Shown one piece after another: positions 1 to 19,702 of a stretch of DNA of 64,000 nucleotides. This DNA comes from Azonexus sp. (GTDB lineage: Bacteria > Pseudomonadota > Gammaproteobacteria > Burkholderiales > Rhodocyclaceae). Location: NCBI GenBank assembly GCA_041904995.1, contig JAYRMB010000003.1, forward strand, positions 86,447-150,446. The letters run 5' to 3'. A program made the translations under genes and the position numbers. The notes beneath the pieces are model-generated. The model made no database searches. It saw only the letters and a program-made list of their open reading frames with translations, and had not been told where the DNA came from. Numbering within the stretch: the first letter of the stretch is position 1; the number at the start of each line of letters is the position of its first letter.

Positions 1-163
1 CACCAAGTCGTCGGCGGCGCTGTTGGCCGAGAACCACAGCGAGGTGCCGAGCAGTTGGGCGAGGACGATGGTGACGACGGGCGGCATGGCGAAATCCGAC
101 AGGAGGTCGGCGGATTATCGGAGCGGACAGGGGCGTTTGCCAATGCCCCTCGGGTAATGCCCG

Positions 164-2071
<1,908 letters not shown>

Positions 2072-2291
2072 GAGGCCGCGAATTATAATCCCGGATTGCC
2101 CATTAGACGGCCCGCCGGGCCTTGCACGAGCGCTGGCGGTCGTTCGGCGGCGCCTTGCCGCCGTCGCTTCGCGCCAATGGGAGCCACCATTGGCTTGGCG
2201 CGCCAGCGTCAATTCGCTCGCTAAACGCCGCGCCATCGTCTCGCACCCTAATGAACATCCGGGATAACGGCGGCCTGCTAAAATCCGCCGC

Positions 2292-3497
2292 ATGATCAAG
2301 CAGATTCGCGCCGACCAGCTCAAGCCGGGCATGTATATCCACGACCTGAATTGTGGCTGGATGGATCATCCTTTCATGACCAATGCTTTCCACGTGCGCG
2401 ATCAGTCGACCGTGGAAAAGATCGTCAATCTCGGCATCCGTGAGTTGTACATCGACACGGTCAAAGGGGCGGACGTCTGGGAGGCGCGTACTCAGGGCGA
2501 GGTCAATGCCGAACTCGATGTGCGCATCCGCGAAATCGCCCGCAAGCAGACCGACAAACCAATCGTCACCGAGCTCAAGGAAGAAGCGGTGCGGGCCCAT
2601 CGACTTCATGGCGAAGCCAACAAGATCGTCCGCCACATGATGGAGGATGTCCGCCTCGGCCAGCAAATTCAGGTCGAGCGGGTCGAGCCGCTGGTCGAGG
2701 GCATGGTCGATTCCATCTTCCGCAACCAGGATGCCCTGTTGCCGCTGGCCCGCTTGAAGAACCACGACGACTACACCTTCGAGCATTCGGTCAGCGTCTG
2801 CGCGCTGCTTGTCGCCTTCGGCCGCGGCATGAAGCTCGAGCGCCAGCAGATCAAGGAACTGGCGCTGGGCGGGCTGTTGCACGATGTCGGCAAGGCCAAG
2901 ATACCGGACAGCATCCTGAACAAGCCGGCTAAGCTCTCGGACGAGGAATTCGCCACCATGCAGTCGCACGTGGCGCAAAGCGTGCTGCTGCTGAAGGACG
3001 CGCCGGGCATCAGCCGCATTGCCCTGCAGGTGGCCGGCGAACATCATGAACGTTTCGACGGCACCGGTTATCCGCGCAAGCTGGACGGCGAGCATATCTC
3101 GCTCTATGGCCAGATGGCAGCCATCGTCGACGTTTACGACGCCATCTCTTCGGAGCGCGTCTATCATAAGGGCATGCCGGCCTCGATGGCGTTGAAGAAG
3201 CTGCTCGAATGGAGCGCCCACCACTTCGATCCGCAACTGGTGCAGACTTTCATCCGCGCCATCGGCATCTATCCGACTGGAACGCTGGTGCGTCTGGAAA
3301 GCAATCGCATGGGCGTGGTCGTCGAGCAAAATGAAGGCAATTTGCTCGAACCGGTCGTCCGCGTGTTCTATCATGCGGCCAAACAGCATTATCTGCCGCC
3401 GGAGATCGTCAACCTGGCCAAGACCCAGGACCGCATCGCCAGCTTCGAAAGTTTCGAGAAATGGAAAATCGACCCCTATCAATGGCTCCCCTCCTGA
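2292..3497 (+). CDS. DUF3391/HD-GYP c-di-GMP phosphodiesterase
   Basis: N-term MIKQIRADQLKPGMYI; LLHDVGK and HHERFDGTGYP motifs intact. Confidence 0.92.
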   Translation: MIKQIRADQLKPGMYIHDLNCGWMDHPFMTNAFHVRDQSTVEKIVNLGIRELYIDTVKGADVWEARTQGEVNAELDVRIREIARKQTDKPIVTELKEEAVRAHRLHGEANKIVRHMMEDVRLGQQIQVERVEPLVEGMVDSIFRNQDALLPLARLKNHDDYTFEHSVSVCALLVAFGRGMKLERQQIKELALGGLLHDVGKAKIPDSILNKPAKLSDEEFATMQSHVAQSVLLLKDAPGISRIALQVAGEHHERFDGTGYPRKLDGEHISLYGQMAAIVDVYDAISSERVYHKGMPASMALKKLLEWSAHHFDPQLVQTFIRAIGIYPTGTLVRLESNRMGVVVEQNEGNLLEPVVRVFYHAAKQHYLPPEIVNLAKTQDRIASFESFEKWKIDPYQWLPS

Positions 3498-4063
3498 TTG
3501 CCGCACTGCTGGCCTGGCCGCTGGCTGCAGCAGCGAGCGAGCCGTCGCCGGGCCAGCAGGCCGCGTGGGAGGCTCGTCTCGAGCAGGCCGCCAAATTGCA
3601 GGCCGAAGGCAAGGAAATGCAGGATTCCATCGACAAGACTTTCGACGAGCAGACCAAGGCCTGCTACAAGAAATTCCAGGTCAATTCCTGCTTGAAGGAA
3701 TCCAAGCTCCAGCATTCGAAGTCGTCGCATCAGGCCCAGCGCCTGATTAACGAGGGCAAGGCCATCGAGCGTAGCGTTAAGAAGGAGCAGCTGGCCGACA
3801 AGGATGCCCGTCAGGCGGCCGAAGCGCCGCAACGCGAAGCCGAATTGAAGGCGCGCGAACGCGAGGTCAGCGCCGAGCAGGCCGAGAAGGCCGCGCAAAT
3901 CGAGCAGACCCGCGCCGACAAGGAAAGAAGAGCGGCCGAAGGTGCCAAGCGTAAGGCAGAGCAAGCCGAACGCCAGCGCAAGAAGGTCGAGGAGCACGAA
4001 GCGCGGCTGGCGGCCAAGAAGGCGCAGGCCGAGCGGCGGGCCGCCGAGGCAGAAGCGAAGTAG
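3482..4063 (+). CDS. Exported coiled-coil hypothetical protein
   Basis: Signal peptide MAPLLIAALLAWPLAAAA, C-x8-C pair, long A/E/K/R-rich helical tail; overlaps the upstream stop, operon-like. Confidence 0.7.
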   Translation: MAPLLIAALLAWPLAAAASEPSPGQQAAWEARLEQAAKLQAEGKEMQDSIDKTFDEQTKACYKKFQVNSCLKESKLQHSKSSHQAQRLINEGKAIERSVKKEQLADKDARQAAEAPQREAELKAREREVSAEQAEKAAQIEQTRADKERRAAEGAKRKAEQAERQRKKVEEHEARLAAKKAQAERRAAEAEAK

Positions 4064-4074
4064 CGAGGCCCGGC

Positions 4075-4413
4075 GTGATCCGCAAGATTCCGATCCGCGA
4101 TCTGCAGCCCGGCATGTTTGTCGTCGATCTGCACAAGCACTGGTTGGAACACAATATCTGGCGGAAACGCTTCATGGTGCGCGATGCGGCCCACGTGGCC
4201 CATCTTGTCGACGAAGGCATCCATGAGGTCAGCATCGACACCGAGCGCGGCCTCGACATTCCGCCCTCGCCGATTCAGCGCATCAACGCCGTCGAACAGA
4301 AAATCCGCTCGCTGGCCGACATCAAGGCCGAAATGCCGCGCCTCGTCTCGCTTGGCGAAGAGCGCCGAAGGGCGGCTCGGCTGATCAAGGAAGCCAATGC
4401 GCTGGTCACCGAC
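4075..4413 (+). pseudogene. 5' half (113 codons) of a DUF3391/HD-GYP gene interrupted by the IS21-type element
   Basis: MIRKIPIRDLQPGMFV... is paralogous to 2292-3497; similarity stops at LVTD, exactly at the target duplication. Confidence 0.92.
4409..4413. repeat. Target-site duplication CCGAC (left copy)
   Basis: Identical CCGAC at 28357-28361; removing the element plus one copy restores the reading frame. Confidence 0.92.
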
Positions 4414-4520
4414 TGTGTTTTATCCCCCCGATTGCCCACCCTTACCATTGTCACAGACCACTGTTACCAGAATCGCTGCCCAGTCAGAAGCAACTGACCA
4501 CGTATTACCATTCTGACCAG
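4414..4520 (+). repeat. Left end with tandem transposase-binding-like repeats
   Basis: 19-nt units TTA(T/C)C...G(A/C)CCA at 4420, 4442 and 4464 (22-bp period), plus further GACCA units ending at 4500 and 4519. Confidence 0.75.
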
Positions 4521-4590
4521 TACGTTCCCTGCGCCCAGCAATCTCGCCTGACCACGATCCAGTTGCCCGACCACCTGATCGGCAGTCCAC

Positions 4591-4622
4591 AAAAAACGGA
4601 GGGGGTGTGACGCCCCTCCGTT
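4591..4622 (-). terminator. Intrinsic terminator after istB
   Basis: Minus strand AACGGAGGGG-loop-CCCCTCCGTT followed by a T-run. Confidence 0.7.
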
Positions 4623-4646
4623 GCTATGGTACAGCTCTGCTTGATA

Positions 4647-5405
4647 TCAATTAGTTGTTGCTGGCGTACTCTTGATTCCCCGGCGTTTGCGGATCGATTC
4701 CCCTCGAATTTCAAGACGGTGGGCTGAATGCACGATCCGGTCGAGCAAGGCGTCGGCAACCGTTGGCTCACCGATCCGGTCATGCCATTCGGTTACCGGG
4801 TGCTGGCTCGTCAAGATCAGAGAATTTTTCCCGGCCCGATCATCAACCAGTTCCAGTACCTCGCGAGCCGCGCCGGCATCCAGGGGGGCCATCAACCAAT
4901 CATCCAAAATGATTACCGAGGCTTTCGCCAACTGGGCTCGCAACCTGGACAGCGACCCGTCGCCCTTGGCCACAGTCAGTTCCTCCACCAAACGCGACAA
5001 CCGAAAATATCGAACTGATTTACCTTGCCGGCAAAGCTGGATGCCAAACGCAGATGCCATCCAGGATTTGCCTGCGCCCGTCGCTCCGGTAATGATCACG
5101 TGCTGTCCGGCTTCTACCCAATGCCCTAGCGCAAGCGAATTGATCAATGAGCGGTCCAAACGGCGAGCAGGATCATAGTCGATCCCTTCGATGCAGGCCC
5201 CTGGTTCCTTGAGCTTGGCATCCTTTACTAGCTTTGCCATGCGCTTGGTGTTGCGAGCCGAAACTTCCGCCTCGACCAGCATGCCAATCCGATCCTCGAA
5301 CGGCAGGGACTGAACGTCCGTTTGCCCCAACTGCAATTCCAGCGCACTGACCATCCCTGTAAGTCGCAGCTCGCGCAGCTGGTTGAAAGTTTGTTGAATC
5401 AGCAT
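4647..5405 (-). CDS. istB: IS21-family helper AAA+ ATPase IstB
   Basis: Walker A GATGAGKS, Walker B IILDDW, LILTSQHP, ADALLDRIVH, GESIR. Confidence 0.96.
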   Translation of the reverse strand: MLIQQTFNQLRELRLTGMVSALELQLGQTDVQSLPFEDRIGMLVEAEVSARNTKRMAKLVKDAKLKEPGACIEGIDYDPARRLDRSLINSLALGHWVEAGQHVIITGATGAGKSWMASAFGIQLCRQGKSVRYFRLSRLVEELTVAKGDGSLSRLRAQLAKASVIILDDWLMAPLDAGAAREVLELVDDRAGKNSLILTSQHPVTEWHDRIGEPTVADALLDRIVHSAHRLEIRGESIRKRRGIKSTPATTN

Positions 5406-5414
5406 GAAGACTCC

Positions 5415-6947
5415 TTAATGGTAATACCCGGCACCGCGGATATTGGCGTGCGTCTGAACGAGAGCGGGCTCTGTAGATTCCTGTGGCAAGGCCGCCGGAC
5501 TTTGCTTATCTCGTCCTGTCCGCAGAATCGAGCGAATACTGGATAAAGTCAGTGAGTTGATTTGCAACGCCACACCGGCAGCGGACTCCAGACGTTCCAG
5601 ACCGTGGCGCTTGCCTTCTTCGACTAACGCCACGCATGCCCGAAAACCGGCCTCCGGATGTGGCTTGTTGGCCAACAGGTGCCGAAAGATTTTCTCCGTT
5701 GCTTCGCCTACCGACTGCCCCCAGGCGATCAAGCGTGTCGGCGACCAATCGGAATAATGCTGATGCGATGACGGCATGAAGTCGCGATTGGTCGCCCGCA
5801 AGCCTTCGCCATACAGGCGAACGTGACTCGCAACCCGCCGGTGCTTGAACAGTACCTCCACCGTCTTCGCCGTCGCACGGATATCCACCGACTGATCGAC
5901 CAAACCGTGTGGAACCATATAGAAACAACCGTCGTACTCAACCATGTAATCCAGTCCGACCCGCGTACCCAGTTTCCAGTCGGCGTATTCATAGGGTTCC
6001 GGCGGCAAAGCCTTCAACGCCGGTTGATCAATTTGAGCAAAATGCTCGTTCCTTGAACCTTTCAATTTCTTGAACGGACGAGCGTTGAATTCCTCTAGTA
6101 AGAGCCGGATAGCGGCGTTTGCTTCCTCAATACTAAAAAATACCCGGTTACGCAGCTTGGCCAGAATCCACATTTGCGCGATGCGAACTCCGCCCTCAAC
6201 CTTTGCCTTGTCCTTCGGGTGTTTTGGTCGAGCAGGTATGATCACCGTCCGATAGTGGCGAGCAAAATCGACGAAACGCGGATTGAGCTTGATATTCCCC
6301 TTCCCATTTTTCAGCACCGCCGATTTCAGATTGTCGGGAACGATCATCGACGGCACTCCTCCAAAATAAGTCAGAGCATTGGCATTTGCCAGCAGCCACT
6401 CAGGTTCCTGCTGCGAGCGGCCAGCCTCAACGTAAGCTTTGCTGGAAGCCCCCATCACCGCCACGAAAATTTCCGCCATCGTCACCTCGCCGGTTTCCCG
6501 GTCGGTGATCGGCAGTCGCTTTCCCGAGTAATCGACAAACAGTTTTTCGCCGGCGCGATGGATCTGCCGCATCGTGATGTTGAGCTTGCGCGCCCACCGT
6601 TTATAGAGACGGGAAACGTGGACATAGGAATAGCCGGTTGGGTGATCGGCTCGGTATTCCTGCCAGAGTAGTTCGATTGTTACCCCTCGAATTTTGAGTT
6701 CGCGATGCCACTGCTCAAAATCCGGTAGAGGCCGATCTGCATCGCAAGAGAGGGGACGAGCATTGAAGCTGTTCTCCAATGCTGTATCGTCCATGGCCTC
6801 GATTTGGTCGAGGGTGATGCTTTTCTCGACTCTTAGCCGATCGTAACGACTGACAGTGTTATGACTGATGCCAATAATGCCGCCAATTTCCCGGTAGGTC
6901 ATTCCCCCGGCGAAAAGAACACGCAGTATTTCTCGGATGGTACTCAT
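5415..6947 (-). CDS. istA: IS21-family DDE transposase IstA (IS408-like)
   Basis: N-terminal HTH, GEKLFVDYSG, IVPDNLKS, PKDKAKVEGGV, YMVPH; RBS AAGGAGG before MSTIRE. An ATG at 7079 is an alternative start. Confidence 0.95.
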   Translation of the reverse strand: MSTIREILRVLFAGGMTYREIGGIIGISHNTVSRYDRLRVEKSITLDQIEAMDDTALENSFNARPLSCDADRPLPDFEQWHRELKIRGVTIELLWQEYRADHPTGYSYVHVSRLYKRWARKLNITMRQIHRAGEKLFVDYSGKRLPITDRETGEVTMAEIFVAVMGASSKAYVEAGRSQQEPEWLLANANALTYFGGVPSMIVPDNLKSAVLKNGKGNIKLNPRFVDFARHYRTVIIPARPKHPKDKAKVEGGVRIAQMWILAKLRNRVFFSIEEANAAIRLLLEEFNARPFKKLKGSRNEHFAQIDQPALKALPPEPYEYADWKLGTRVGLDYMVEYDGCFYMVPHGLVDQSVDIRATAKTVEVLFKHRRVASHVRLYGEGLRATNRDFMPSSHQHYSDWSPTRLIAWGQSVGEATEKIFRHLLANKPHPEAGFRACVALVEEGKRHGLERLESAAGVALQINSLTLSSIRSILRTGRDKQSPAALPQESTEPALVQTHANIRGAGYYH

Positions 6948-7219
6948 CCTTGCCTCCTTGAAGCTATTTGGCAAGGGGACGACAAATCGACGTGACGGCC
7001 CCTTGCCATCAAAACGATCCAAGCCCGTCGTCTTGACATGGAATGGAGCAGAAGGCAGAATGAATTCGTAGTGATTCATTAGCGCTTCAGAAAACGGCCG
7101 CGGTTGGCAGACCAAGGCCGTTTTTGCTTTTGTGCTCCCGCTGTTTGATGCAATACGGGTCACTAGATCATTCGACGACCTCCTTTGCGCTACCAAACTT
7201 CGCGAGGAGTATCGACCGA

Positions 7220-7462
7220 TTAGTGCGCGAGAGCGCCATCTTCGATACCTTGCTTGATGCCGAGACGTACGGCAATTCGGTGGGACTGGCCGCGCAAGCA
7301 CTTCTTGCGACCGCCCAGAATGTCGAAGACCAGATTTGCGGAGAAGCCATTCTCCCGAGCCCAGGCGGAGATGCACAAGCCACGAGCAACAAAATCGGCG
7401 CGGACTTCCGCTAGGGTTTTGACGTGCGCTGACCTATCATTACGGTCATTCATGGATCGCAT
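7220..7462 (-). CDS. Ner-like phage DNA-binding protein (BcepMu gp16-type)
   Basis: ISAWARENGFSANLVFDILGGRKKCLRGQSHRIAVRLGIKQG matches the recognisable gp16-family pattern; co-oriented upstream of istA. Confidence 0.8.
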   Translation of the reverse strand: MRSMNDRNDRSAHVKTLAEVRADFVARGLCISAWARENGFSANLVFDILGGRKKCLRGQSHRIAVRLGIKQGIEDGALAH

Positions 7463-7538
7463 CCTTTCCCGAGTGATTGAGAGTTGATGCGAGTGATTTT
7501 CCGCACTTTAGTTACAAACGTCAACACCAAAGAGCGAG

Positions 7539-8012
7539 ATGCGCAAACTCTCCAATACGAACGCCCCGGACGAAGAGGTCGAATCGACCGCCGCCAACCC
7601 CGTGCCAGAAGAAACATTAGCCGATCGTTTGCAGATGATCATCGGCAGCGAGTCCGTCGCCTCGTTTGCGCGACGTAGTGGTGTGGGAGAGAGTTTGCTG
7701 CGCAAGTATCTGAACGGCGCATTACCGAATTCAAACAATCTGGTGCTGCTAGCCGATGCCGCGGGATGCTATGTCGATTGGCTGGCGTGCGGCCGCCCAC
7801 CGATAATGCGCGTAGATCCGGCTGCTGGCACAGAGTGTTCTGACACAGAAGGCGAGTTTCTGCTGCTGAAGCGTTACCGTGCTGCCGATGACGATGAGAA
7901 AGCTGCGGTCCGAGCCTTGCTCGACGCGATAGCGAATCCGGGAGGCGGCGCCTGGTTCCGGGTCGGGCAGGCGATAACCAGCATCGCCAATATCTTTCCG
8001 CGCAAAAAATAG
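7539..8012 (+). CDS. Phage CI-like XRE HTH repressor (no S24 peptidase domain)
   Basis: LADRLQMIIG..SVASFARRSGVGESLLRKYLNG..P...LVLLADAAG..VDWLACGR; divergent from the Ner-like gene. Confidence 0.82.
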   Translation: MRKLSNTNAPDEEVESTAANPVPEETLADRLQMIIGSESVASFARRSGVGESLLRKYLNGALPNSNNLVLLADAAGCYVDWLACGRPPIMRVDPAAGTECSDTEGEFLLLKRYRAADDDEKAAVRALLDAIANPGGGAWFRVGQAITSIANIFPRKK

Positions 8013-8257
8013 CGGCTACTCTAATGAGCAGCACTCCCTGCGAGTCAGGTGTTAGTGCTAATCTGGGAAATCTTGCGCCAGAGACGTCATCTCGAAGGCA
8101 ATATCAGCTCGTGCACCGGCACACGTAGCGCATCCGCCAATTTATCGATATTGTCAATCGGGGTGTTCCGGACACCGCTCTCCACATGCGCAACAAATGT
8201 CCGGTTCAGATTCGCCTCCTGCGCCAGGTCTTCCTGAGACACTATCCATTCAACCCG

Positions 8258-9205
8258 CTAGCTGTGTAAACCCACCAGGTTGTTCAGAGAGGTAATGCGG
8301 GAGACTGGAGGCAGATATTGAAGACTGGCATGAGGGCGATGCCAGTTGTATTGATGCAGCCAGAGGGGGAGATGTTGAGCGCGGTGGTCGGAGGATTCAT
8401 AGGTGCGCGCATAGGCCCATTCCCGCAAGGCAGTCTGGATGAAGCGCTCGGCCTTGCCGTTGGTTTGCGGTGTATAGGGCTTGGTCCGCAGATGGCGCAG
8501 CCCCAGTCGTTGGCAGAGACGGGCGAAGCGCCGGGATTTGTAGCAGGCGCCGTTATCGGTCAGGACCCGCCGGAAGGTGACGCCGAACTGGCGGTAGTAG
8601 CGCAGGGCCGAGAGCAATGCGCGACAAGCGCTCCGGCCGCTCTCGTCGGGCTGGATGTCGGCAAAGGCGACTCTCGAGTTGTCGTCGAGGGCGACATGGA
8701 CGAATTCCCAGCCGGCGCCGGGCGAGGTCTGCGTGTGGTCCGCGGTCACCCGATGCCCCGGGCGGTGGAAGCGCCCGAGCTTCTTGATGTCGAGATGGAG
8801 CATGTCGCCCGGTGCGGGATGCTCATAACGCACGACGGGGGCCGCCGGCTCCAGTGAGGCCAGGCGGTTGAGTCCGGCGCGCTGGAGCCAGCGTGCCACG
8901 GTGCTGTGGCCGACGCCGCATTGCTGACTGATCTGGCGATAGGTCTGGCGGCTACGCCGTTGCTCGATCACCTGAGCCTGGATGGCCGGCGACAAGGCAT
9001 GGGGACAGGTTTGGGGGCGTGATGAGCGATCACTGAGTCCGGCCACGCCTTCGGCGCGGAAACGCTGCAGCCATTTGTAGGCGGTGCGCACACTGACGCC
9101 GCTGGCTTGGGCGGCTTCCTCGGGGCGCAGCCTACCATCGAGCATGCGACGAACCAGAAGGGCTCGACCGTGCGGCGTTAATCGGGCATTTTTATGGATG
9201 TTCAT
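8258..9205 (-). CDS. IS481-family transposase
   Basis: MNIHKNARLT, LHLDIKKLG, VLTDNG, PQTNGKAERFIQT, YNWHRPH; the stop codon comes from the target CTAG. Confidence 0.95.
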   Translation of the reverse strand: MNIHKNARLTPHGRALLVRRMLDGRLRPEEAAQASGVSVRTAYKWLQRFRAEGVAGLSDRSSRPQTCPHALSPAIQAQVIEQRRSRQTYRQISQQCGVGHSTVARWLQRAGLNRLASLEPAAPVVRYEHPAPGDMLHLDIKKLGRFHRPGHRVTADHTQTSPGAGWEFVHVALDDNSRVAFADIQPDESGRSACRALLSALRYYRQFGVTFRRVLTDNGACYKSRRFARLCQRLGLRHLRTKPYTPQTNGKAERFIQTALREWAYARTYESSDHRAQHLPLWLHQYNWHRPHASLQYLPPVSRITSLNNLVGLHS

Positions 9206-9288
9206 TCGGGGCCCCGGCGGCTTGGTTGGTTGGCGCCTCCAATTCTCCGGGGAAACACCCCGAGTGAACAACCTACAGAGAGATCACA
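8263..9288 (-). mobile_element. IS481-family insertion sequence (1026 bp)
   Basis: TGT...ACA ends with imperfect 24-bp IRs (TGTG...AGGTTGTTCA); 6-bp TSD GCTAGC at 8257-8262 and 9289-9294. Confidence 0.93.
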
Positions 9289-9417
9289 GCTAGCGGCGCA
9301 GACCGTTCACCAGCAGTGCACGTGCCGAACAACTAAATTCCACAGTGAAGGTTCCGAAGGCCCGTTCAGACCGTAGGCAGCCGGCGCGGTGGATAACGCG
9401 GATTTCATGCGGCGAGG

Positions 9418-9555
9418 TTTTCCTGCGGCAATCTGGTTCGGATGCACATCGAATTGCTGCGCGAACTCGGCTAGCGTCCTGTCGCCGTTCAAGGCGACGA
9501 TCGCCACCTTGGCCTTGAATTCCGGCGAATGATTCCGCCGCTTTCTTCTTGTCAT
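9418..9555 (-). pseudogene. IS3-family transposase OrfA fragment
   Basis: MTRRKRRNHSPEFKAKVAIVALNGDRTLAEFAQQFDVHPNQI, after which similarity is lost; no OrfB. Confidence 0.75.
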
Positions 9556-10080
9556 GCTCCTGCTCCATTTCTCCGCCACTACGGGGCCTGCGATTGAGCA
9601 AGGCCATTATTTTTCCAACTTTCCGGGGATGGTTATAAGCGGGCGCGTCGTGCAATGCCATTTTTCCGACAGAAGAAGCGCAATTGGGAGCCGAAATCTG
9701 GGACTTAATTTCGACAGTCTGTTAGAGCGAATGAAGTGCATAAAAGATTCTTTCGGCATATGCCGTTAACATTCAGTCATGCTGTTGACATTTTGTGGAA
9801 AATAATAATAATGCCAAGTCAATGCTGACCGGAGTGGCTGAAGGAAGACTAATGATGAAGATGCTTACACAGTTCTTCTACAAAAGAATAGGCATCTCAC
9901 CATCTTGGTTCTGCACCCCACTAAACCAATGATATTTAATAAGAATTAACATCGAGTTGTTCAAAATTTATTAGAAATGTTCTGAACATACACATACATG
10001 CATTCCGCATATCGATCTATGCTCCCGTCCTGTTCATGGGTGCGACGTAGGCATGTGGTGTCACATTTAAGCCAAGAAGA

Positions 10081-10974
10081 ATGATCCAAATAAATTTTAA
10101 GTATTTAATGTTTGTGGCGACGCTATTGCTGGTCGCAATGATGCAGTCAGCATCCTTTGCAGCAGAAGCCCCAAAACAGGAACTTGTGATGGGCTTTGTT
10201 CCCAGTCGCGACGTGAACCAAATCCAGTTTTCTGCGGATCGTATCGCACACTTCCTGTCCGAACAGACCGGCTACAACATCAAGGCTGTTACAGCCCAGA
10301 GTTATGCAGCGGTCGTTGTCGGTATGAGTAACAAGACTATCGATATTGCATTTCTTGGGCCGCTCGATTATGTCGTCGGCCACATCAAGAATGGCGCTTA
10401 TCCAATTACTGCATCAGTCCGTGCAGGCAAGAAGGGATACAACGGCATCGTGATTGTGCGCAAGGACAGCGAGATCACAGATCTGAAAGGTTTGAAAGGC
10501 AAAACGCTTGCCTTGGGTGACCCGCTGTCAGCGTCGTCGAATCTCTATCCAAAATCCGCGATGATCAAAGCCGGTGTCGAGCCGATGAGAGACGTCAGGA
10601 CAATGACGCTAAGCAGCGCCAGCGCGATCGTTATGTCAGTCGCGCAAGGCAAGGTCGATGCAGGCGCGGTATATCTCGATGCGCGCAAAAATCCAGAGGT
10701 AGCTGCGCGCTTCCCGAAAATCATGGATGACACGAGGGTGATTCATTCTACCGAGACGATTCCGGCCGACCCGCAGATTGTGCGAAAGGATCTGAATCCG
10801 GAGCAGGTACAGGCGCTGAAGAGAGCGTTGCTCGTGTTGTCTTCCAACGGCGAAGGCCAGAAATGGCTGAAGGAATTGTTCGGCATCGACCAGTTGGTAG
10901 CAGCGGACGATCGGGACTACGACGGGCTGCGTCACGTAATTCGCGAGGTCAACCCGATGCTGTTGAATCCTTGA
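10081..10974 (+). CDS. phnD: Phosphate/phosphite/phosphonate ABC substrate-binding protein (PhnD-like)
   Basis: Signal peptide, GFVP, DIAFLGPLDY, LKGKTLALGDPLSASSNLYP, IPADP, DRDYD. Substrate not determinable from sequence. Confidence 0.85.
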   Translation: MIQINFKYLMFVATLLLVAMMQSASFAAEAPKQELVMGFVPSRDVNQIQFSADRIAHFLSEQTGYNIKAVTAQSYAAVVVGMSNKTIDIAFLGPLDYVVGHIKNGAYPITASVRAGKKGYNGIVIVRKDSEITDLKGLKGKTLALGDPLSASSNLYPKSAMIKAGVEPMRDVRTMTLSSASAIVMSVAQGKVDAGAVYLDARKNPEVAARFPKIMDDTRVIHSTETIPADPQIVRKDLNPEQVQALKRALLVLSSNGEGQKWLKELFGIDQLVAADDRDYDGLRHVIREVNPMLLNP

Positions 10975-10990
10975 TTGCTCAAGACAGAGC

Positions 10991-11734
10991 ATGGGTGATT
11001 TTCTCAGGACAGCTGGATTGGCGAAGCGTTTCGGTGACGCAGAATTTGCGTTAGCGCCTACGGATCTTGCCTTCGGTCGTGGGCAGTTCGTTGCTGTTAT
11101 CGGCCCATCTGGCGCGGGTAAAACAACGTTCCTGCGCTGCATGAACCGCATGATCGACCCGTCCGAGGGTAAGGTTTTCATCAACGGGCAATGCATCTCA
11201 TCAATGGGAAAGCGTGAGCTGAGGCGGCGCATTGCGATGGTCTTCCAACAACCCAATCTTGTGCAGCGCTTGAGCGCGCTCGATAACGTACTGATCGGAC
11301 GGCTAGGCTTTATGACCGGTATGCGCACATTGCTTCCATGTTTTAGGCGTGAAGACAAGATGAAGGCGCTCTCTGCGCTTGATCGAGTTGGCATGCTCGA
11401 GTACGCCGCTACTAGTTGCGTCAGCCTGTCGGGGGGGCAGCAGCAACGTGTGGCGGTCGCCAGGGCGCTCGCGCAGGAAGCCGATGTACTTCTTGCTGAC
11501 GAGCCCGTGTCCAGCCTGGATCCCGAGAATGCCGCCAAGGTCATGGCGCTCCTGAAGGACATCAATCAACAGGATGGTGTGACTGTGCTTGTAAACTTGC
11601 ATCAGATTGATCTTGCGAGACAGTGCGCCAATACCATCGTGGCATTCAAAGCTGGCCGTGTGGTTTATTTTGGCACTGGCGAGGCTTTCATGGATGAGCA
11701 TTATCAGAAAGTTTTCGTGGCGGCGGCATCGTGA
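10991..11734 (+). CDS. phnC: PhnC-like ABC ATPase
   Basis: GPSGAGKT, VFQQPNLVQRLSALDNVLIGRLG, LSGGQQQRVAVARAL, LADEPVSSLDP, VNLHQ. Confidence 0.88.
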   Translation: MGDFLRTAGLAKRFGDAEFALAPTDLAFGRGQFVAVIGPSGAGKTTFLRCMNRMIDPSEGKVFINGQCISSMGKRELRRRIAMVFQQPNLVQRLSALDNVLIGRLGFMTGMRTLLPCFRREDKMKALSALDRVGMLEYAATSCVSLSGGQQQRVAVARALAQEADVLLADEPVSSLDPENAAKVMALLKDINQQDGVTVLVNLHQIDLARQCANTIVAFKAGRVVYFGTGEAFMDEHYQKVFVAAAS

Positions 11735-12804
11735 AATCCAATCTCTCCGTAGCCCTCAATCTGTTACCCGGTGTTGGATATCTGCATCGCGGCGAATATC
11801 TGCGTGGCGCGCTCGATCTAGCATGCTTCATCATCGTTCTTGGCATCGGGCGGGGACTCCTGTCTGAAGGTGGTGTGTTTCTCTCCCTGCTTGTGATGGT
11901 CAGTTCGGCGTACCGTATGGCCTATGTAGTGCATGTGTCGGCACCGATCGTCCAGCAGGCGGGGCGGACTGCTGGAGGCTCTAAAACCATCGATCCGCTG
12001 GGCATGATTATGATGCTCAAACCGCGCTGGTGGGTGAGTGTGTTCAACTGGCCTTGGCTGTATATCGTAGTGGCTGCCATGTTGGTGGCGTATCTGTCGC
12101 GCGAGACTGAGTTGTCTTGGACGCAGATAGTCATGGGTGCTCCGGGCGCGATGGAGCTGGCGAAGGACTTTTTCTCGCCGGACTGGTCCCTCCTGCCGAA
12201 TGCTTTGGGATATGCGATGCAGACGATTGCGATCGCCGTCCTGGGTACCTTCTACGGCATACTGATCGCCGTACCAATGTCGGTGTTTTGCGCGAAGAAC
12301 CTGATGCGTGCAACGTCATCAACCCACTCGGTGTACTACGTCGCACGTTGGGGGATGGCGGTGATGCGAGCCACACCGACCTTCCTACTTGGATTGATTT
12401 TTGTCGCATGGGTAGGCTTGGGTCCATTTCCTGGCGTGCTGGCTATCACAATCTTTTCCGGCGCCTTAATGACCAAGCTGTTGTCGGAAGCTATCGAGTC
12501 GGTAAACCCGGGGCCAATCGAGGCAGCAACCGCTACGGGCGCTAATCTTTTCCACGTGATTCTCTTCTCGGTTTTTCCACAGCTGCCAACGGTATTTATT
12601 GCAATATCGCTTTACTGCCTCGAGATCAATATCCACAGCGCCACGGTTCTGGGTCTGATCGGTGCACAGGGCATAGGCATGCCCATACATGAATATCTTT
12701 CGTCCCTAGCCTATAGCAGTGCATCGGTCTATATCTTGGTCGTCATTTTCATCACGATCGGGACGGATTATGCGAGTGGTCTGGTTCGCTCGCGCATCAA
12801 ATAG
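11731..12804 (+). CDS. phnE: PhnE-like ABC permease with N-terminal TM extension
   Basis: EAIESVNPGPIEAATATGA, LEINIHSATVLGLIGAQGIG; overlaps the phnC stop. Confidence 0.85.
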   Translation: MKSNLSVALNLLPGVGYLHRGEYLRGALDLACFIIVLGIGRGLLSEGGVFLSLLVMVSSAYRMAYVVHVSAPIVQQAGRTAGGSKTIDPLGMIMMLKPRWWVSVFNWPWLYIVVAAMLVAYLSRETELSWTQIVMGAPGAMELAKDFFSPDWSLLPNALGYAMQTIAIAVLGTFYGILIAVPMSVFCAKNLMRATSSTHSVYYVARWGMAVMRATPTFLLGLIFVAWVGLGPFPGVLAITIFSGALMTKLLSEAIESVNPGPIEAATATGANLFHVILFSVFPQLPTVFIAISLYCLEINIHSATVLGLIGAQGIGMPIHEYLSSLAYSSASVYILVVIFITIGTDYASGLVRSRIK

Positions 12805-12951
12805 CGAATGAAACCACTGTTTGAAAATTGCTATTTTGACTCCGTATCCATTTTCCGGGATGGAACTACACGCACGGTCAGTTACTTGTTGTTTTCAACT
12901 TGGCGAGGATTTATTCATGAATTTGTCCGATTTCTTCATAGGAGAGATAAA

Positions 12952-13473
12952 TTGAAAAATCAGCATTGTCCGTCTACTCAGCGCAAGTCGCTGTTCATCG
13001 TGTCGAGCCCGGATATCGTCGGAGAGAAACTCAACGATAAGCATGTATTCAATGGCTTCGGCTACTCAGGAGGAAATGAGTCGCCAGAACTCAAATGGAG
13101 TGGAGCACCGATTGACACCAAGAGCTTCGCCATCACTCTCTATGACCCGGATGCTCCAACTGGCAGCGGGTGGTGGCATTGGGTCGTATATAACATTCCG
13201 GCAAATGTTACCTCTCTACCTGGGGGGGCCGGAGCGGATGGCGGAAAATCGCTACCCGAAGGGGCGGCAATGGGGCGCAATGATTTTGGTTTGAAGGCCT
13301 ATGGCGGAGCCTGCCCGCCACCTGGCAAGCAGCACCGCTACCTTTTCACAGTGCACGCTTTGATGATCGAGAAGATCGAGGTACCAGAAGACGCATCGCC
13401 CGCCTTAATCGGTTTCAACCTTACTAGTAACTGCATCGACAAGGCGGTGTTGACCACGATCTATGGATCTTAG
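12952..13473 (+). CDS. YbhB/YbcL (PEBP/RKIP-like) protein
   Basis: GGNESPELKW, SFAITLYDPDAPTGSGWWHW, GACPPPG, HRYLFTVHAL; TTG start inferred from RBS AGGAGA. Confidence 0.85.
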   Translation: MKNQHCPSTQRKSLFIVSSPDIVGEKLNDKHVFNGFGYSGGNESPELKWSGAPIDTKSFAITLYDPDAPTGSGWWHWVVYNIPANVTSLPGGAGADGGKSLPEGAAMGRNDFGLKAYGGACPPPGKQHRYLFTVHALMIEKIEVPEDASPALIGFNLTSNCIDKAVLTTIYGS

Positions 13474-13614
13474 ATGAAGGTGTGTAGAGGATGCATTGCA
13501 CCTAAAGACTTGCTAATAGCGAGCCTATATGTGCACATCTTTAAGGCCGCCATGTATCCGCTTTGCTTACCAAAGAGTCAAAGAAAACACTTTTAGAAAA
13601 CGAAAGTTAATCTT

Positions 13615-15357
13615 ATGTCAATAGATAAATTGATCGATGATCTAGTCACCCAGGCTGGAAAAATGCCAGCATCCATTTCGGTTCAACGTGCACTCACGGT
13701 GGATGGGTGTATCCCAGAGGAGGACAAGCTTGCGCCATTAACGTCAGCAGAACGTTACGCAATCGAATGCATCACACGTAAGAATCACAGCTTCGCGAGC
13801 GACGGTCAAATTAGTTTGGCTTTCCGGCCTCACGGGAGATTGCATGTTCTGCCGAGAGAGGATTTTGAAGTTCACTCTGAATTTCTTACATTAATTGGGC
13901 ATGTTGAATTAACAGAAGCTGAGCTAGTAACTTACTTGGCAACAAAGCAGTCTGCACAGTGTGCGTTGGAAGAAGAACGAACTGTCATTCTAAGTTACTT
14001 GTTCAAGCATGGGTTCGAATGCATATGTGGTGAGTTGTCGCGCTTGTCCGAACATATGGCGCCGTTAATTTATTACGTTGGCGAAATCTGTATTTCTAAT
14101 TTCTATGACATTGGAAAGTCTGATTTCAAGTTGGAAAGTACTTTGGAACATGCCTTGAAAGAGGTTCTCGAGCAGCGTGAAAATGCTCCCATAGAGTTTC
14201 TGACCACCATCTATTGTCTGCATCTGCTTTTGCAGTCTGGAAGCTATACGCGCCTCGAAGAATTGAATTCGAGCCAACTGTCTCGATCCGTTCTAGCGGA
14301 TTACTTTGATGCCAAATACGGCGTCTATCAGAAAGCGGGCGGTGTTTACTCTGATGTGGAGAGCTACTCCTTGTTTTCCTCGTCCTCTCTGGAGGATAAA
14401 GCGGTATTGCTCGCGCATATCCGGAGGAGCATAGAAACTACTAGCCGTTTTACTCGCCATATCAATGGCGTGAATCTGCGCAAGAAGGAAAACATTCTTC
14501 CAATTCCTCCTGCCCAAGTAAATGCTTCACTCCCGTCCCTGCATCGCTCTGCGCACACTATGGCCATGCTACAGCGTTGGGTGGGGCCAAACAGATCTGC
14601 TCAACAAACCTTCCTTCCCAGTTCTTTTGGGGATCTGCTCAAAGAAATAGAAATATTGCTTGCACAAAAAGCTTCGTTTCCGTCTCGACTTGAGTCCTTA
14701 ATTGATTATGTGGTCGCAGAGGCAGTGTGCAGCACACGATCTGATTTCGGCATGACTCGCGGTGCACGTGATTTCCTTAAGTTCGCCACGGCCTTGTGCC
14801 AGGGGCAAACTGAAGTTGCCAGTTCGTGGGGACAGGGAGAGTATTTCTGCCACGTAGTGCCAAACGAAGAAATGAAGGCAGCGTATTCACCAAAGACGCT
14901 CTCAATGATTCTCAATGCAATATCCGGACGCATGCGCTACAACTCTTGGCATTACGCGCCAAGCTATTTCGAAATTGCGAGCATTTCTGCTGACCGAGGC
15001 TGGTTCTATGCCCCACGAATGGCCGATATTGCAGACTGGTGCGACCAGCATCACACCGGCCATATACATGCCTCCGTTCGTTACAGCATCAGATCCCCTC
15101 TGCCCATTTGCGTACGAGATTCCGTGTTCCCGGGATTCATTGATTTGAGGTTAATGCGTCAGTCTGGCGATCCGTATAGCCGAGAGGATTTGGTCACAGC
15201 CATTGCCTACACTGAAGCTCTTCAGTTCATCTATCAGAGCTTGATGAATTTTGTATTGAAAGAAAACAAAAGTTTTGTATTTACTTTTGGCGATAAAAAG
15301 TGGATCGAAAAAGTCTGCTTACCACAGACACCAGAGATGGTTGCCGCAATCGCGTAG
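13615..15357 (+). CDS. 580-aa hypothetical protein, probable enzyme
   Basis: Long open frame inside the operon; motif-like blocks RLEELNSSQ, RHINGVNLRKKE, HVVP, RMRYNSWHY, DQHHTGH, DLRLMR; no family recognised. Confidence 0.85.
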   Translation: MSIDKLIDDLVTQAGKMPASISVQRALTVDGCIPEEDKLAPLTSAERYAIECITRKNHSFASDGQISLAFRPHGRLHVLPREDFEVHSEFLTLIGHVELTEAELVTYLATKQSAQCALEEERTVILSYLFKHGFECICGELSRLSEHMAPLIYYVGEICISNFYDIGKSDFKLESTLEHALKEVLEQRENAPIEFLTTIYCLHLLLQSGSYTRLEELNSSQLSRSVLADYFDAKYGVYQKAGGVYSDVESYSLFSSSSLEDKAVLLAHIRRSIETTSRFTRHINGVNLRKKENILPIPPAQVNASLPSLHRSAHTMAMLQRWVGPNRSAQQTFLPSSFGDLLKEIEILLAQKASFPSRLESLIDYVVAEAVCSTRSDFGMTRGARDFLKFATALCQGQTEVASSWGQGEYFCHVVPNEEMKAAYSPKTLSMILNAISGRMRYNSWHYAPSYFEIASISADRGWFYAPRMADIADWCDQHHTGHIHASVRYSIRSPLPICVRDSVFPGFIDLRLMRQSGDPYSREDLVTAIAYTEALQFIYQSLMNFVLKENKSFVFTFGDKKWIEKVCLPQTPEMVAAIA

Positions 15358-15382
15358 CTTGCACAAATAGGAGGAGAGAGAA

Positions 15383-15718
15383 ATGACTTTCGTCGTTACC
15401 GAAAATTGTATTCGCTGCAAATATATGGACTGCGTTGCGCCTTGTCCCGTGGATTGCTTCTATGAAGGTCCGGAGTTTTTGGTTATCAATCCAGATGAAT
15501 GTATCGATTGCAATGTTTGTGCAGTGGAGTGTCCAGTCGATGCAATTTATCAAGATAAAAATCTGCCGGAAAATCAAAAAGAGTTCATCGAGATAAATAA
15601 ACAACTCTCACAAATATGGCCACGTGTGACTGGTGGTACCTCTGCCCCACTGCCAGATGCTGAACATTGGCGAACGGTGAGTAATAAAAAGGGCTTCCTG
15701 GTTCTACCAGAAAACTGA
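15383..15718 (+). CDS. fdxA: 7Fe (3Fe-4S/4Fe-4S) ferredoxin, FdxA type
   Basis: [29 protein letters not shown]...CIDCNVC...CP; RBS AGGAG. Confidence 0.9.
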
Positions 15719-15853
15719 AATCAGTTTGATCGAGTGCGACCGGCTAGCCTTTCTATTTGCAAGCCTACAAAGTAGATCTTAACAACTTAAGGAGTACCCC
15801 CGGCTCTGCCGGAGGATTGTTACCAACAAACCTGTCACGAGGAGTGAGGCAAA

Positions 15854-16756
15854 TTGAGTGATCTGAAGTTGTCAGAAATAGTGCGACGAAAAATTTCGTC
15901 GGTCAAAGGTATCCAGGAGACTTCGATATCCGCAGAGAGCTCCATTAAGGATGATTTGGGAATTTCGTCGATGGAGTTTATTACCATTTTGACCGAAGTT
16001 GCTGAGGTGCTGCGTATTGATCTGATGAAGTTTTCAGAGAAAGAAATTGTCACCGCTCTTACTGTCGGCGACCTGGAGCGAGTAATTGCCTCGAAGCTTC
16101 CCAAGCAAGGAGAAAAAGTGATCAATTTTAGTTCTGACATCGTATTGAAGGGATGGGGGGTTGTACTTAGGCCTTGGATGGAGCAAGACGTTGGGCAGAT
16201 TGTAGAGTCGGCTACAGACCCGCTTGTTTGGAAATATACGACTGAGGCACTTTCGAACAAGGGCGACGTTGTTAAATATGTTGCGCGGGCTATGGCTGAT
16301 CGAGAGGCGGGTAAGCGCTACTCTTTCGCAATTTGTCTGGAAGGTAGCGATGCAATCGTGGGTAGCTCTAGCTTCGGGAATATGTCTGCAAAAGATGGCC
16401 GACTCGAAATCGGTTGGACTTGGTTAGCCCCGGAATATCACGGGCAAGGACTTAACAACGTCGTCAAGTACCTCATGTTGAAATATGGTTTTGAGGAGCT
16501 CGATTCACACCGTATAGAGTTTAAGACGGACAACGCAAACCCTCGATCGTGCGGAGCGCTTGAAAAGATTGGTGCAAAGCGGGATGGCGTTTTGCGTTCG
16601 CACACCTTAATGCATGATGGGCGCTATCGGGATACGGCGTACTACTCGATACTCAACGAAGAATGGGCTCAGGTGAACGCTGCGCTTTGCCATCGGATAG
16701 CGAGCGTGCTTGAGCAAGGGGCTGATTACTCACAAAACGTATCCATTGCTGGATGA
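15854..16756 (+). CDS. Acyl carrier protein fused to a RimJ/RimL-type GNAT acetyltransferase
   Basis: Residues 1-82 ACP-like (DDLGISSMEF, TVGDL); the rest GNAT (EIGWTWL, HRIEFKTDNAN, GVLRSH, RDTAYYSIL). Confidence 0.82.
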   Translation: MSDLKLSEIVRRKISSVKGIQETSISAESSIKDDLGISSMEFITILTEVAEVLRIDLMKFSEKEIVTALTVGDLERVIASKLPKQGEKVINFSSDIVLKGWGVVLRPWMEQDVGQIVESATDPLVWKYTTEALSNKGDVVKYVARAMADREAGKRYSFAICLEGSDAIVGSSSFGNMSAKDGRLEIGWTWLAPEYHGQGLNNVVKYLMLKYGFEELDSHRIEFKTDNANPRSCGALEKIGAKRDGVLRSHTLMHDGRYRDTAYYSILNEEWAQVNAALCHRIASVLEQGADYSQNVSIAG

Positions 16757-16770
16757 TGCAATGAGAGTGA

Positions 16771-16798
16771 GGGGCGCGAGTATGCATACTCGCGCCCC
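16771..16798. repeat. Perfect 28-bp palindrome
   Basis: GGGGCGCGAGTATGCATACTCGCGCCCC equals its own reverse complement; intergenic. Confidence 0.95.
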
Positions 16799-16830
16799 AT
16801 CAGCGATATTCCTCGTGTGAAGGTTCAATA

Positions 16831-17997
16831 ATGCAAATGCCAGAAAATGCTGTGCGGCTATCGGGTGATCCGATAACCCGCGGGGTCCAGCATGGGCGAA
16901 AGCTGGCCCCAGAAATCAAACGCCTTCTTTCTAATGACTGTGCGCGGATTAACTGCCATCTATCACGCCCTGTTCCGGAGGAGCTGATCTACGCTTATGT
17001 GAGGAAATTCGCTTTTGAAATAGAGAGGGAATTACCTTTGATCGCGGCAGAGATTGAAGGGCTCTCCAAGGGCGCGGAGATTTCTTATGAGCAAGCAGTT
17101 CTCCTCCAGGTCCGCCGTGAAATTTTAATGCACCTGCGTAAAGGTGCTAACAGCGACTGCTCTACATTTTCGCTACCGATAAATAAACGGGTTGTTGCTC
17201 AAACTATCGACCTCAATAGTTCCTTTGCAGAATTTGGCACGGTATTCCAAATTGAACCTTGGTGCGGTAGCCCCGAAATCCTGATGTTCTCTTTCGCTGG
17301 TTTGCTGGGGTACATGGGCATGAATTCCAGTGGCCTAGCTATTGCGATCAATATGGTTTCTTCTGATGATTGGCGTCCAGGCGTTCCTCCCTATCTGTTG
17401 GTGCGCCACTTGCTGGAGCTACACACCGTTGAGGAGTGTCTTGAGGCAATAGCAAATATTCGGCGAAGCAGTTCCCGCAGTTTCACTATCTGCGACTCGA
17501 CGCGCAGTGTTACGGTCGAAATGACCGCTACTTCATTCGCCGTTCTGGAAGGGAAGAAGTTGTTGCACACCAATCATTATTTGTCTCCTGATTTGGCCCC
17601 TTACGACACCATCAATTTTCTAGCTCGGCACTCTTCCATGCAGCGGCTTGCGAAGCTTCATACCTTAACGCAAAACCTTCCAGAAACGCCGGCCGTCAGC
17701 GAGCTATTCAATCTCTTCGCTGATCACGAAAACCATCCTGTCGGATTATGTAGTCACGCCGATGGCGATCTGCGCCGGACGGAAACAGTTGCCACGGCAG
17801 TAATGCATCCGGCGACTGGAACGATGTACGTTCGTAAGGGAATGCCGTGCTGCGGCTGTGAAATTGAAAAGTTCACGATGGCCAGCATGGATGTTAAATC
17901 CGACATGCAGGCTATTTCCGCCGCGACTCATCGAGTAAGTGATAGTCGGCCTGACCTGGTGCCGGGCGTTCAATTCGAAAATATCGGGCAGTTATGA
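16831..17997 (+). CDS. C45-family Ntn hydrolase/acyltransferase (isopenicillin-N acyltransferase-like)
   Basis: RGVQHG, EIEGLSKGA, DCST (Cys110 candidate nucleophile), AQTID, GMNSSGLAIAIN, HTNHY. Confidence 0.85.
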   Translation: MQMPENAVRLSGDPITRGVQHGRKLAPEIKRLLSNDCARINCHLSRPVPEELIYAYVRKFAFEIERELPLIAAEIEGLSKGAEISYEQAVLLQVRREILMHLRKGANSDCSTFSLPINKRVVAQTIDLNSSFAEFGTVFQIEPWCGSPEILMFSFAGLLGYMGMNSSGLAIAINMVSSDDWRPGVPPYLLVRHLLELHTVEECLEAIANIRRSSSRSFTICDSTRSVTVEMTATSFAVLEGKKLLHTNHYLSPDLAPYDTINFLARHSSMQRLAKLHTLTQNLPETPAVSELFNLFADHENHPVGLCSHADGDLRRTETVATAVMHPATGTMYVRKGMPCCGCEIEKFTMASMDVKSDMQAISAATHRVSDSRPDLVPGVQFENIGQL

Positions 17998-18839: not shown

Positions 18840-18934
18840 GTACGCCAGCAGAATACTTTGCCAAGATGGCTGATTTGCCAGTGCCAAAATCTGCGGGATG
18901 TTGCCGTGATAAATAAAAATGAGGATGAAAACGT

Positions 18935-19588: not shown

Positions 19589-19702
19589 TGTGGTAGCAAA
19601 GAACACATGTTTTCCCGCAAAAATGTGCGTGAAAATTCCGTGCTCATAAGCGCAAATTTTTATTCGCTTACATCTTGAAATCTATATTGTCGACATACTC
19701 CA

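Follow-up and report, generated by a model that had tools for sequence, protein, structure and literature searches.

Classical members of the IS21 family carry istA and istB only, in about 2-2.7 kb, and generate target duplications of 4-8 bp. They are treated as bare two-gene insertion sequences in which expression depends on promoter formation at tandem junctions, and IS21 itself is a structural and biochemical model of the AAA+-dependent transposases. This study concerns an IS21-family element in a 64,000-nucleotide stretch of the genome of an Azonexus sp. (GenBank assembly GCA_041904995.1, contig JAYRMB010000003.1, positions 86,447 to 150,446 of the forward strand), the whole of which is referred to below as the window. 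The evidence strongly supports a cargo transposon of 23,943 bp at window positions 4414-28356, with its transposition and control core (4647-8012) at one end. The core comprises istA and istB, a small gene of the BcepMu gp16 family upstream of them and, divergent from the latter, a cI-like repressor gene; the two regulatory genes probably form a switch of the transposable-phage type that controls istAB.

As in IS21 and IS5376, IstA has a DDE triad and a Mu-transposase-like barrel and is followed by IstB, and the ends have TG...CA termini, several direct repeats and target duplications of 5 bp (CCGAC and GCCAT). The window element differs from the family in its size of 23.9 kb, about 20 kb of which is cargo, in the divergent repressor/Ner-like pair, and in a long structured leader and a predicted antisense RNA. 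Given its length, the two regulator genes and the cargo, it was regarded as a transposon built on IS21 machinery and not as an insertion sequence.

The Mu repressor contains a MuA-like winged-helix domain, and that of the window differs in having a helix-turn-helix (HTH) of the cI/Cro type. As in phage Mu (c, ner, A, B), the repressor gene is divergent from a small DNA-binding gene heading an operon for a DDE transposase and an AAA+ protein, and some relatives of the element (L002, L035 and L175-9) carry a true Ner-family gene in this position. Of the features of a Mu-like phage the locus shows the layout; the transposase is IstA, not of the MuA or Tn552 type, and no head, tail or other morphogenesis, lysis or packaging genes were found in the scanned cargo. 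IstA/IstB and MuA/MuB are structural relatives (PMC10122671).

In BcepMu, gp17 (cro/cI type) is divergent from gp16, which heads a leftward operon reaching the transposase gp9 and the ATPase gp8. The annotation of a related Pseudomonas phage gives a 'CI-like repressor' divergent from a 'Ner-like antirepressor' that precedes the transposase. The small protein of the window belongs to the gp16 family and occupies the same position opposite a cro/cI-type repressor. BcepMu differs in its Tn552/IS1604-type transposase, its ExeA-like ATPase and the several genes that separate gp16 from the transposase.

Some Tn7-like transposons carry Xre- or MerR-type regulators of their transposition genes. Tn7-like elements, CRISPR-associated ones included, share with the window element a DDE transposase with an AAA+ regulator, asymmetric multi-repeat ends and a large cargo rich in defence genes (PMC8649781). 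In contrast, TnsA, TniQ and attachment-site targeting were not evident in the window element, which was inserted in ordinary coding sequence at two different sites and is regulated by two divergent genes of phage type in place of one repressor. A search of full-text literature, with most subscription journals and ISfinder outside its scope, returned nothing in which Ner, cargo carriage or a repressor of the cI type is joined with IS21 or IstA/IstB, and no single paper mentioned IstA, IstB and Ner. The combination of IS21 machinery, a transposable-phage control module and a large cargo has thus not been described before in the literature searched.

Boundaries and mobility of the element

The coordinates of all features are listed in Table 1. 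The initial annotation had taken 4647-8012 as the unit of interest; its genes were correctly placed, but the region is merely the core of the 23.9-kb transposon. Both ends have IS21-type TG...CA termini and start with TGYGTWTTAYC, which has just two matches in the 64-kb window (4414 and 28356), in inverted orientation and each adjoining CCGAC. Since TGYGTWTTAYC was derived partly from End B, the independent evidence from contigs (below) weighs more. End A holds an array of TTACCA...GACCA(G/C) subterminal repeats at a spacing of about 24 bp, and the subterminal repeats CTGACCAGTA and CGTATTACCA are present in both ends. The End A terminus was kept in the relatives L029, L031, L032, L002, L035 and L038-40, with a different flank each time. 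A search for long inverted repeats missed both ends because only about 11 nt are common to the two. The loss of DNA similarity to L001-3 near 7186 had suggested a left end of the core at that point; this was rejected, since L001-3 have their own upstream repressor/Ner pair and the true distal end lies at 28356.

Table 1. Features of the transposon and its flanks (window coordinates).
Feature	Position	Strand	Remarks
Target-site duplication CCGAC, left copy	4409-4413		same 5 bp at 28357-28361
End A, istB-proximal terminal inverted repeat	4414-4530	+	starts TGTGTTTTATCC
Intrinsic terminator 3' of istB	4595-4622	-	10-bp stem, then TTTTTGT
istB	4647-5405	-	AAA+ helper ATPase, 252 aa; NF038214 238 bits, PF01695 222 bits
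istA	5415-6950	-	DDE transposase, 511 aa; NF033546 263 bits
Structured leader	6951-7143	-	hairpin 1 7094-7121; block CATTCTGCCTTCTGCTCC; hairpin 2 7008-7037; hairpin 3 6970-7007
Predicted antisense small RNA unit	7033-7131	+	TTGACA 7033-7038, 17-bp spacer, CAGAAT 7056-7061
Ner-position gene, BcepMu gp16 family	7220-7462	-	TIGR04111 83 bits; phrog_925
Divergent control region	7463-7538		ner-facing promoter and three repeats
cI-like repressor candidate	7539-8012	+	157 aa; PF01381 HTH_3 at residues 41-82; C-terminal domain of unfamiliar family
Cargo	8013-27989		G+C 0.45-0.56, flanks 0.60-0.67
End B, distal terminal inverted repeat	28240-28356	-	inward reading TGCGTATTACCACTCAGAAGACCAG...
Target-site duplication CCGAC, right copy	28357-28361		interrupted HD-GYP gene resumes here

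The transposon split a DUF3391/HD-GYP gene. Its first part, from 4075, shows no damage before the insertion at 4413, and its remainder lies at 28362-29231. The N-terminal part aligns to residues 1-122 of a paralogue, and the remainder to residues 116-401. Three paralogous genes of this kind are present in the window (2292-3497; 4075-4413 with 28357-29234; and 37130-38191 on the minus strand), and the middle one is that interrupted.

Window sequence is present in activated-sludge metagenomes (runs X1, X2, X3 and X7), in which contigs break exactly at 4414 and 28356; at End B the break was seen in X1, X3 and X7, and X2 holds the occupied junction only. Other contigs (X1, X2, X3 and X7) represent the empty site and join ...GGTCACCGAC straight to ATGATGCTGG..., with a single CCGAC. 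Empty and disrupted alleles therefore coexist in the same samples, and occupancy of the HD-GYP site varies between them: the depth of the element against that of the flank was about 21-23 vs 50 in X1, 7 vs >100 in X3 and 486 vs 525 in X2. A second insertion was found in which End A adjoins ...GCGCCTGGCCAT (X7) and End B adjoins GCCATGACCTGCCC... (X3 and X7), the second End B flank reading GCCATGACC... in the same two runs. This insertion carries its own 5-bp duplication, GCCAT, at both ends.

The empty site and the second insertion with its GCCAT duplication show that the element is mobile. That 4414-28356 is a transposon which has moved at least twice, and which occupies at least two sites in the sampled community, is strongly supported, as is the action of IstA and IstB on two multi-repeat ends to give 5-bp target duplications. 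Work on IS5376 likewise reports, for transposition of the IS21 type, a duplication of 5 bp, a 3' CA and ends with multiple repeats (PMC10122671).

Genes of the core

The four genes of the initial annotation, with their divergent and co-oriented layout, were recovered in the open reading frame list and in hidden Markov model scans (profile cut-offs of 160 bits for NF033546, 200 for NF038214, 34 for TIGR04111 and 25 for PF13693). istB lies directly downstream of istA, at a distance of 9 nt. The DDE triad of IstA is intact (D140, D206 and E252 by alignment to IS5376 IstA, PDB 8q4d/8b4h). Only the Mu-transposase-like C-terminal barrel was detected in IstA with Pfam, the rve model not reaching E <= 0.01. 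The 76-bp gap between the divergent genes is as first measured. The likely start of the ner-like gene is its second ATG (7453), which gives a protein of 77 aa, as in the homologues, instead of 80 aa from 7462.

The cI-like protein gives its best PHROG matches with the 'transcriptional repressor' families phrog_3037 and phrog_2328. That it has no S24 peptidase, as claimed previously, was borne out by the domain scans, in which HTH_3 was the only domain found; the protein thus lacks the C-terminal peptidase of the self-cleaving repressors LexA and lambda cI. Between the window and its closest relative (L029), the ratios of nonsynonymous to synonymous divergence (pN/pS) were 0.05 (istA), 0.06 (istB), 0.12 (cI) and 0.00 (ner-like gene). 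The ner-like protein is identical in the two although pS is 0.12. These values indicate purifying selection on all four core genes.

The small gene is Ner-like by position and context, and belongs to the gp16 family rather than to the Ner family. Its product is 56% identical to BcepMu gp16 and exceeds the TIGR04111 cut-off, and the gene is divergent from that of a cI-type repressor and comes first in the presumed transposition operon. An AlphaFold model (predicted local distance difference test, pLDDT, of 74) has the four helices of a Cro/cI-like HTH protein.

Gene order in related elements

Relatives of the window IstA were drawn from genome and metagenome collections. The order in which a repressor gene is divergent from a ner-like gene followed by istA and istB was found in at least 13 IstA lineages, that is in every relative examined at 48-96% IstA identity (Table 2). 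The arrangement is thus far from confined to this genome, and some lineages have PF13693 in the ner slot; on sequence comparison the recurrence is far beyond chance. The HTH pair was not found in more distant IS21 relatives (31-47% IstA identity) with enough upstream sequence to judge, several contigs of that group holding <500 bp upstream of istA.

Table 2. Relatives with the conserved gene order (positions are those of the respective loci).
Relative	IstA identity	Ner slot	Cargo, context or host
L029	96%	gp16	GAP1 / DO-GTPase / GASH / GAAD conflict system (1-6643)
L001-3	81%	Ner (HTH_35)	Thiobacillus, Zoogloea
L031	77%	third, unclassified type	
L032-34	76%	gp16	WYL/WCX
L030	73%	gp16	RHS/YD-shell toxins (3647-8843)
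L173-4	68%	gp16	RHS/YD-shell toxins (L173 590-5320)
L035	62%	Ner (HTH_35)	SNF2 / DUF4391 / methylase / ResIII (1-8310)
L036-40	58%	gp16	DUF499 / DUF3780 / DUF1156 / PLD-helicase (L036 1-9032)
L172	51%	gp16	bacHORMA with AAA_15/21 genes and HTH-M78 peptidase pair (1-4309)
L171	50%	gp16	uncharacterised genes
L178-9	50%	Ner (HTH_35)	compact context
L175-7	48%	Ner (HTH_35)	compact context

The ner slot is occupied by a gp16-family gene in the window, L029, L030, L032, L036, L171, L172 and L173. A true Ner gene (PF13693) is present in four lineages, above the cut-off in L002 and L035 (about 32 bits) and by precomputed matches in L176 and L178, that of L176 being marked weak. The gp16-type repressors are mutually homologous (41-52% identity) and fill the same slot in L036, L171, L172, L173 and L032. 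The window and L029 are similar at the DNA level (88.6%) from End A onwards, and this similarity breaks off precisely at the cI-like gene's stop codon. The regulator pair therefore belongs to the core, and the cargo starts right after it.

Next to the core the relatives carry defence, toxin or metabolic genes, conflict systems being the most prominent. Ner-type lineages have, after the repressor gene and in the same orientation, a gene for a conserved protein of 165-200 aa (27-36% identity; L002 3856-4428, L175 2112-2720, L178 170-727 and L035 8359-8853), the hydrophobic C-terminal stretches of which resemble membrane helices by eye. The motif IQIN..QRNxxRDYxEY is common to the C-terminal tail of the L002 repressor and the N-terminus of the protein that follows it. 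In BcepMu, too, a membrane protein (gp18) comes after gp17, and the 165-200-aa protein may be an exclusion or partner protein.

The window IstA had no match in an exact-protein look-up, and megablast of the core against plasmids gave none; in a protein comparison with PLSDB no plasmid exceeded 46% IstA identity. Blastn of the core against phages returned short matches only, which led to the gp16 family. No IstA relative was confirmed in a viral contig collection searched with six IstA peptide patterns. A degenerate 18-mer from the leader gave mostly chance matches in metagenome and viral contigs; four were real, all of the L002 type, and none of these was among the viral contigs. A block shared by L002 and L003 begins at 3706, inside truncated host genes, and has no target duplication, so that it defines no left end for them. 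Apparent recombinants between regulator types in contigs may be artefacts of assembly-graph branches and are not claimed.

The divergent control region

A promoter scan placed the ner-facing promoter on the minus strand (TTGACG-17-GAAAAT, with the -35 element at 7519-7524 and the -10 element at 7496-7501). A repeat finder returned CGAGTGATT at 7470-7478 and again at 7490-7498. These belong to three GAGTGAT/GAGTTGAT units spaced by 10 bp: GAGTGATT at 7471-7478, GAGTTGAT at 7481-7488 and GAGTGATT at 7491-7498. All gp16-type lineages have a sigma-70 promoter, TTGAC(A/G)-17-GA(T/A)AAT, followed by AATCACTC, ATCAACTC and AATCACTC at 10-bp spacing. Promoter and repeats are kept in relatives in which IstA is just 58-76% identical, and the exact triple pattern recurs in L029 and L030.

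A cI-facing promoter is possible at TTGATG (7484-7489), 17 bp and TTTAGT (7507-7512), overlapping the repeats; it was read from the alignment and was not called by a tool. The middle repeat overlaps the plausible -35 element of this promoter. Overlapping divergent promoters under phased repeats would be what a two-repressor switch requires.

The initial annotation had seen in the locus the logic of the Mu early region. The layout does copy the early region of transposable phages (BcepMu and the Pseudomonas phage), but the dyad proposed as operator did not hold. The arms TGCG (7488-7491) and CGCA (7502-7505) exist; since they are of 4 bp, were not reported by the repeat finder and are only loosely kept in relatives, the dyad is no more than expected by chance. 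The three GAGTGAT-type repeats appear to be the better candidate operators.

A perfect 7-nt inverted repeat, TCGCATC/GATGCGA, was also observed at 7457-7463 and 7486-7492; it is present in L029 and not in L030. Through it, the predicted ner transcript could fold back from its 5' end onto the surroundings of the ner ribosome-binding site and first ATG.

The leader of istA and a predicted antisense RNA

The ner-like gene and istA are separated by a spacer of 269 bp, which is kept from lineage to lineage, even where the regulator pair is of another type. An alignment of seven lineages gave a consensus fold of several hairpins for the sense strand of the leader, which contains the Shine-Dalgarno sequence AAGGAGG. 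Its minimum free energy has a z-score of -3.9, none of 200 shuffled sequences being as stable. Covariation in hairpin 1 was 0.258, against 0.084 in shuffles (0/500 as high), and collapsed when the pairing partner was slid. Neither the leader nor the antisense unit has a match in Rfam.

The opposite strand carries the predicted antisense unit, with a start near 7068, the hairpin at 7094-7121 and a T-run, TTTTTGCTTTT, at 7121-7131. In its promoter, TTGACA-17-CA(G/T/A)A(A/T)T, neither the -35 hexamer nor the 17-bp spacing varies among the seven aligned lineages (7/7), and the same promoter can be read by eye in L172. The T-run after hairpin 1 is found on the plus strand in nine lineages, whereas that of the sense strand is not conserved. 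From the invariant promoter facing hairpin 1 and the plus-strand T-run, an antisense RNA of about 65 nt (7068-7131), ending at hairpin 1, is predicted. The promoter scan predicted no sense-strand promoter between the ner-like gene and istA.

In X27, a library labelled metatranscriptomic, contigs cover 4417-7503, a span that takes in End A, istB, istA, the leader and the ner-like gene. Coverage ends at 7503, beside the predicted -10 element of the ner-facing promoter, and there are no contigs on the cI-like gene. The pattern fits a transcript from the ner-facing promoter, and equally a variant with another repressor gene, or carry-over of DNA.

Proposed control of transposition and alternative explanations

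We consider it likely that the element is an IS21-type cargo transposon with a transposable-phage-type switch controlling istAB, and infer that transposition is controlled by the repressor/ner-like pair. The module upstream of istA would have been copied from transposable phages, with the gp16/Ner-like gene heading the istA-istB transcription unit. In an established copy the cI-like repressor would keep the ner-facing promoter, the counterpart of Mu Pe, shut, and the transposon would be silent. Entry into a repressor-free cell, or inactivation of the repressor other than by RecA-type self-cleavage, would fire this promoter. The Ner-like protein would then lower both the repressor promoter and its own, through the three repeats overlapping both, and the outcome would be a brief pulse of IstA and IstB, damped further by the structured leader and the antisense RNA of about 65 nt. 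The regulator pair, of which related IstAB cores carry at least three exchangeable types, would confer distinct immunity specificities, like the immunity regions of heteroimmune phages.

Several results weigh against this reading. The window Ner-like protein has no Pfam match at E <= 1, and so none to the Ner family (PF13693, HTH_35). With its model, the best Foldseek E-value was a non-significant 0.2, to generic Cro/cI HTH proteins: the best matches were the 434 repressor and Cro, DdrO, HipB and HigA, the Ner-family EnrR ranked 11th, and the solved Mu Ner was absent from the top 50. The cI-like protein has no detectable relation to BcepMu gp17, a further difference from that phage. The conserved hairpin in the ner-istA spacer could insulate istA from the promoter upstream; with this hairpin and the predicted antisense RNA in the spacer, simple co-transcription of ner and istA is not assured. 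Metatranscriptome contigs of low depth extend over the stop codon of ner (7156-7340) and over the leader (6985-7143), but they are strandless and may reflect DNA carry-over. The raw reads of one RNA run gave just two reads. A position-weight scan found no left ends in the relatives, so that their carriage of cargo is judged from gene content alone.

The alternative that survives best, though unlikely, is that the HTH pair serves the host or the cargo, as an immunity cassette against BcepMu-like phages or a regulator of cargo genes, and that istAB is expressed independently. The abundance of defence genes in the cargo of relatives would agree with this, as would the hairpin that separates the ner-like gene from istA and the conserved membrane protein after the Ner-type repressors, which recalls phage exclusion genes. 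However, the pair stays constant while the cargo changes wholly, with the break in similarity at the cI stop codon. Moreover, the ner-like gene is always co-oriented with istA and directly upstream of it, with the conserved leader between, and no sense promoter is predicted in that spacer.

Rather less probable is a sensory role, in which phage infection or stress would inactivate the repressor, as in phage-inducible islands, and a defence-laden transposon would be expressed or moved upon attack instead of upon entry into a naive cell. The C-terminal domain of the repressor, which is conserved, of unfamiliar function and without S24, could be suited to such a role, and defence and toxin genes are present in the cargo of relatives. 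However, the cargo of the window element is itself metabolic, and the scheme is a variant of phage-type control of istAB, not a different architecture.

Chance juxtaposition of an ordinary IS21-type element with the immunity region of a decayed Mu-like prophage, suggested by the otherwise Mu-like and P2-like phage distribution of gp16-family genes, is excluded for practical purposes by the position of the pair inside the inverted-repeat and target-duplication boundaries and by the recurrence of the order in at least 13 lineages, whose different flanks and cargo exclude a single clonal locus, and the scanned cargo has no phage structural genes and no viral-contig relative of IstA was confirmed.

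Cargo and other insertions

The first gene beyond the cI-like gene belongs to the XRE family. Only its N-terminal fragment remains (8087-8242, minus strand), severed by an insertion of the IS481 family (8255-9296) with 32-nt imperfect inverted repeats and a transposase at 8258-9271 (NF033577, 310 bits). The remnant of an IS3-family orfA follows at 9307-9579. At the matching place L029 has a different, intact XRE gene of 91 aa.

The cargo at 10081-27989 includes genes for a phosphonate-type ABC transporter, a PEBP-like protein, a ferredoxin, an MFS transporter and a formate/nitrite-type channel. Its enzymes include a GNAT protein, an AAT/C45 acyltransferase, an alpha/beta hydrolase, a Sua5/YrdC-like protein, a GcvT-like aminomethyltransferase, an AMP-ligase, a phosphopantetheinyl transferase and an aminotransferase. 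The N-terminal extension of the GNAT protein looks like a carrier protein by eye, Pfam matching the GNAT domain alone. From its gene content the cargo looks like a cluster for biosynthesis or uptake of a small molecule.

No phage structural genes were found among ten cargo proteins scanned against Pfam (transport or metabolic, one having no match), nor in the fetched flanks of 13 related contexts (2-10 kb per locus, the left end not being reached). With these genes absent from the scanned cargo and flanks, and no relative of IstA confirmed among the viral contigs with the six peptide patterns, a phage-IS chimera in the sense of a prophage, as first proposed, was discarded.

Outside the transposon, a second stretch of low G+C content (0.45-0.47 at 31-33 kb) was observed at 30964-33372. 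Two terminator-like palindromes, alike in sequence (30964-30991 and 33345-33372; 82% complementary), bracket this stretch, which may have been inserted as well.

Implications

IS21 machinery moves about 24 kb here and, judging from gene content, defence systems and polymorphic toxins in the relatives, which have so far been found in sludge, groundwater, wastewater and other environmental bacteria. More tentatively, these elements could form a widespread and undescribed family of IS21-derived cargo transposons, the window element being the first member recognised, with a phage-type bistable switch, exchangeable immunity modules, an antisense RNA, zygotic induction and heteroimmunity, a living intermediate between insertion sequences and transposable phages. 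If the proposed control is true, a non-viral transposon would be under natural lysogeny-like control, and the locus would be a clear case of module exchange between phages and transposons, bearing on the origin of Mu-like phages. It would also provide a compact, repressor-controlled system for transposition of large cargo that is usable as a tool. These elements add a class of vehicle for defence islands beside the Tn7-like elements.

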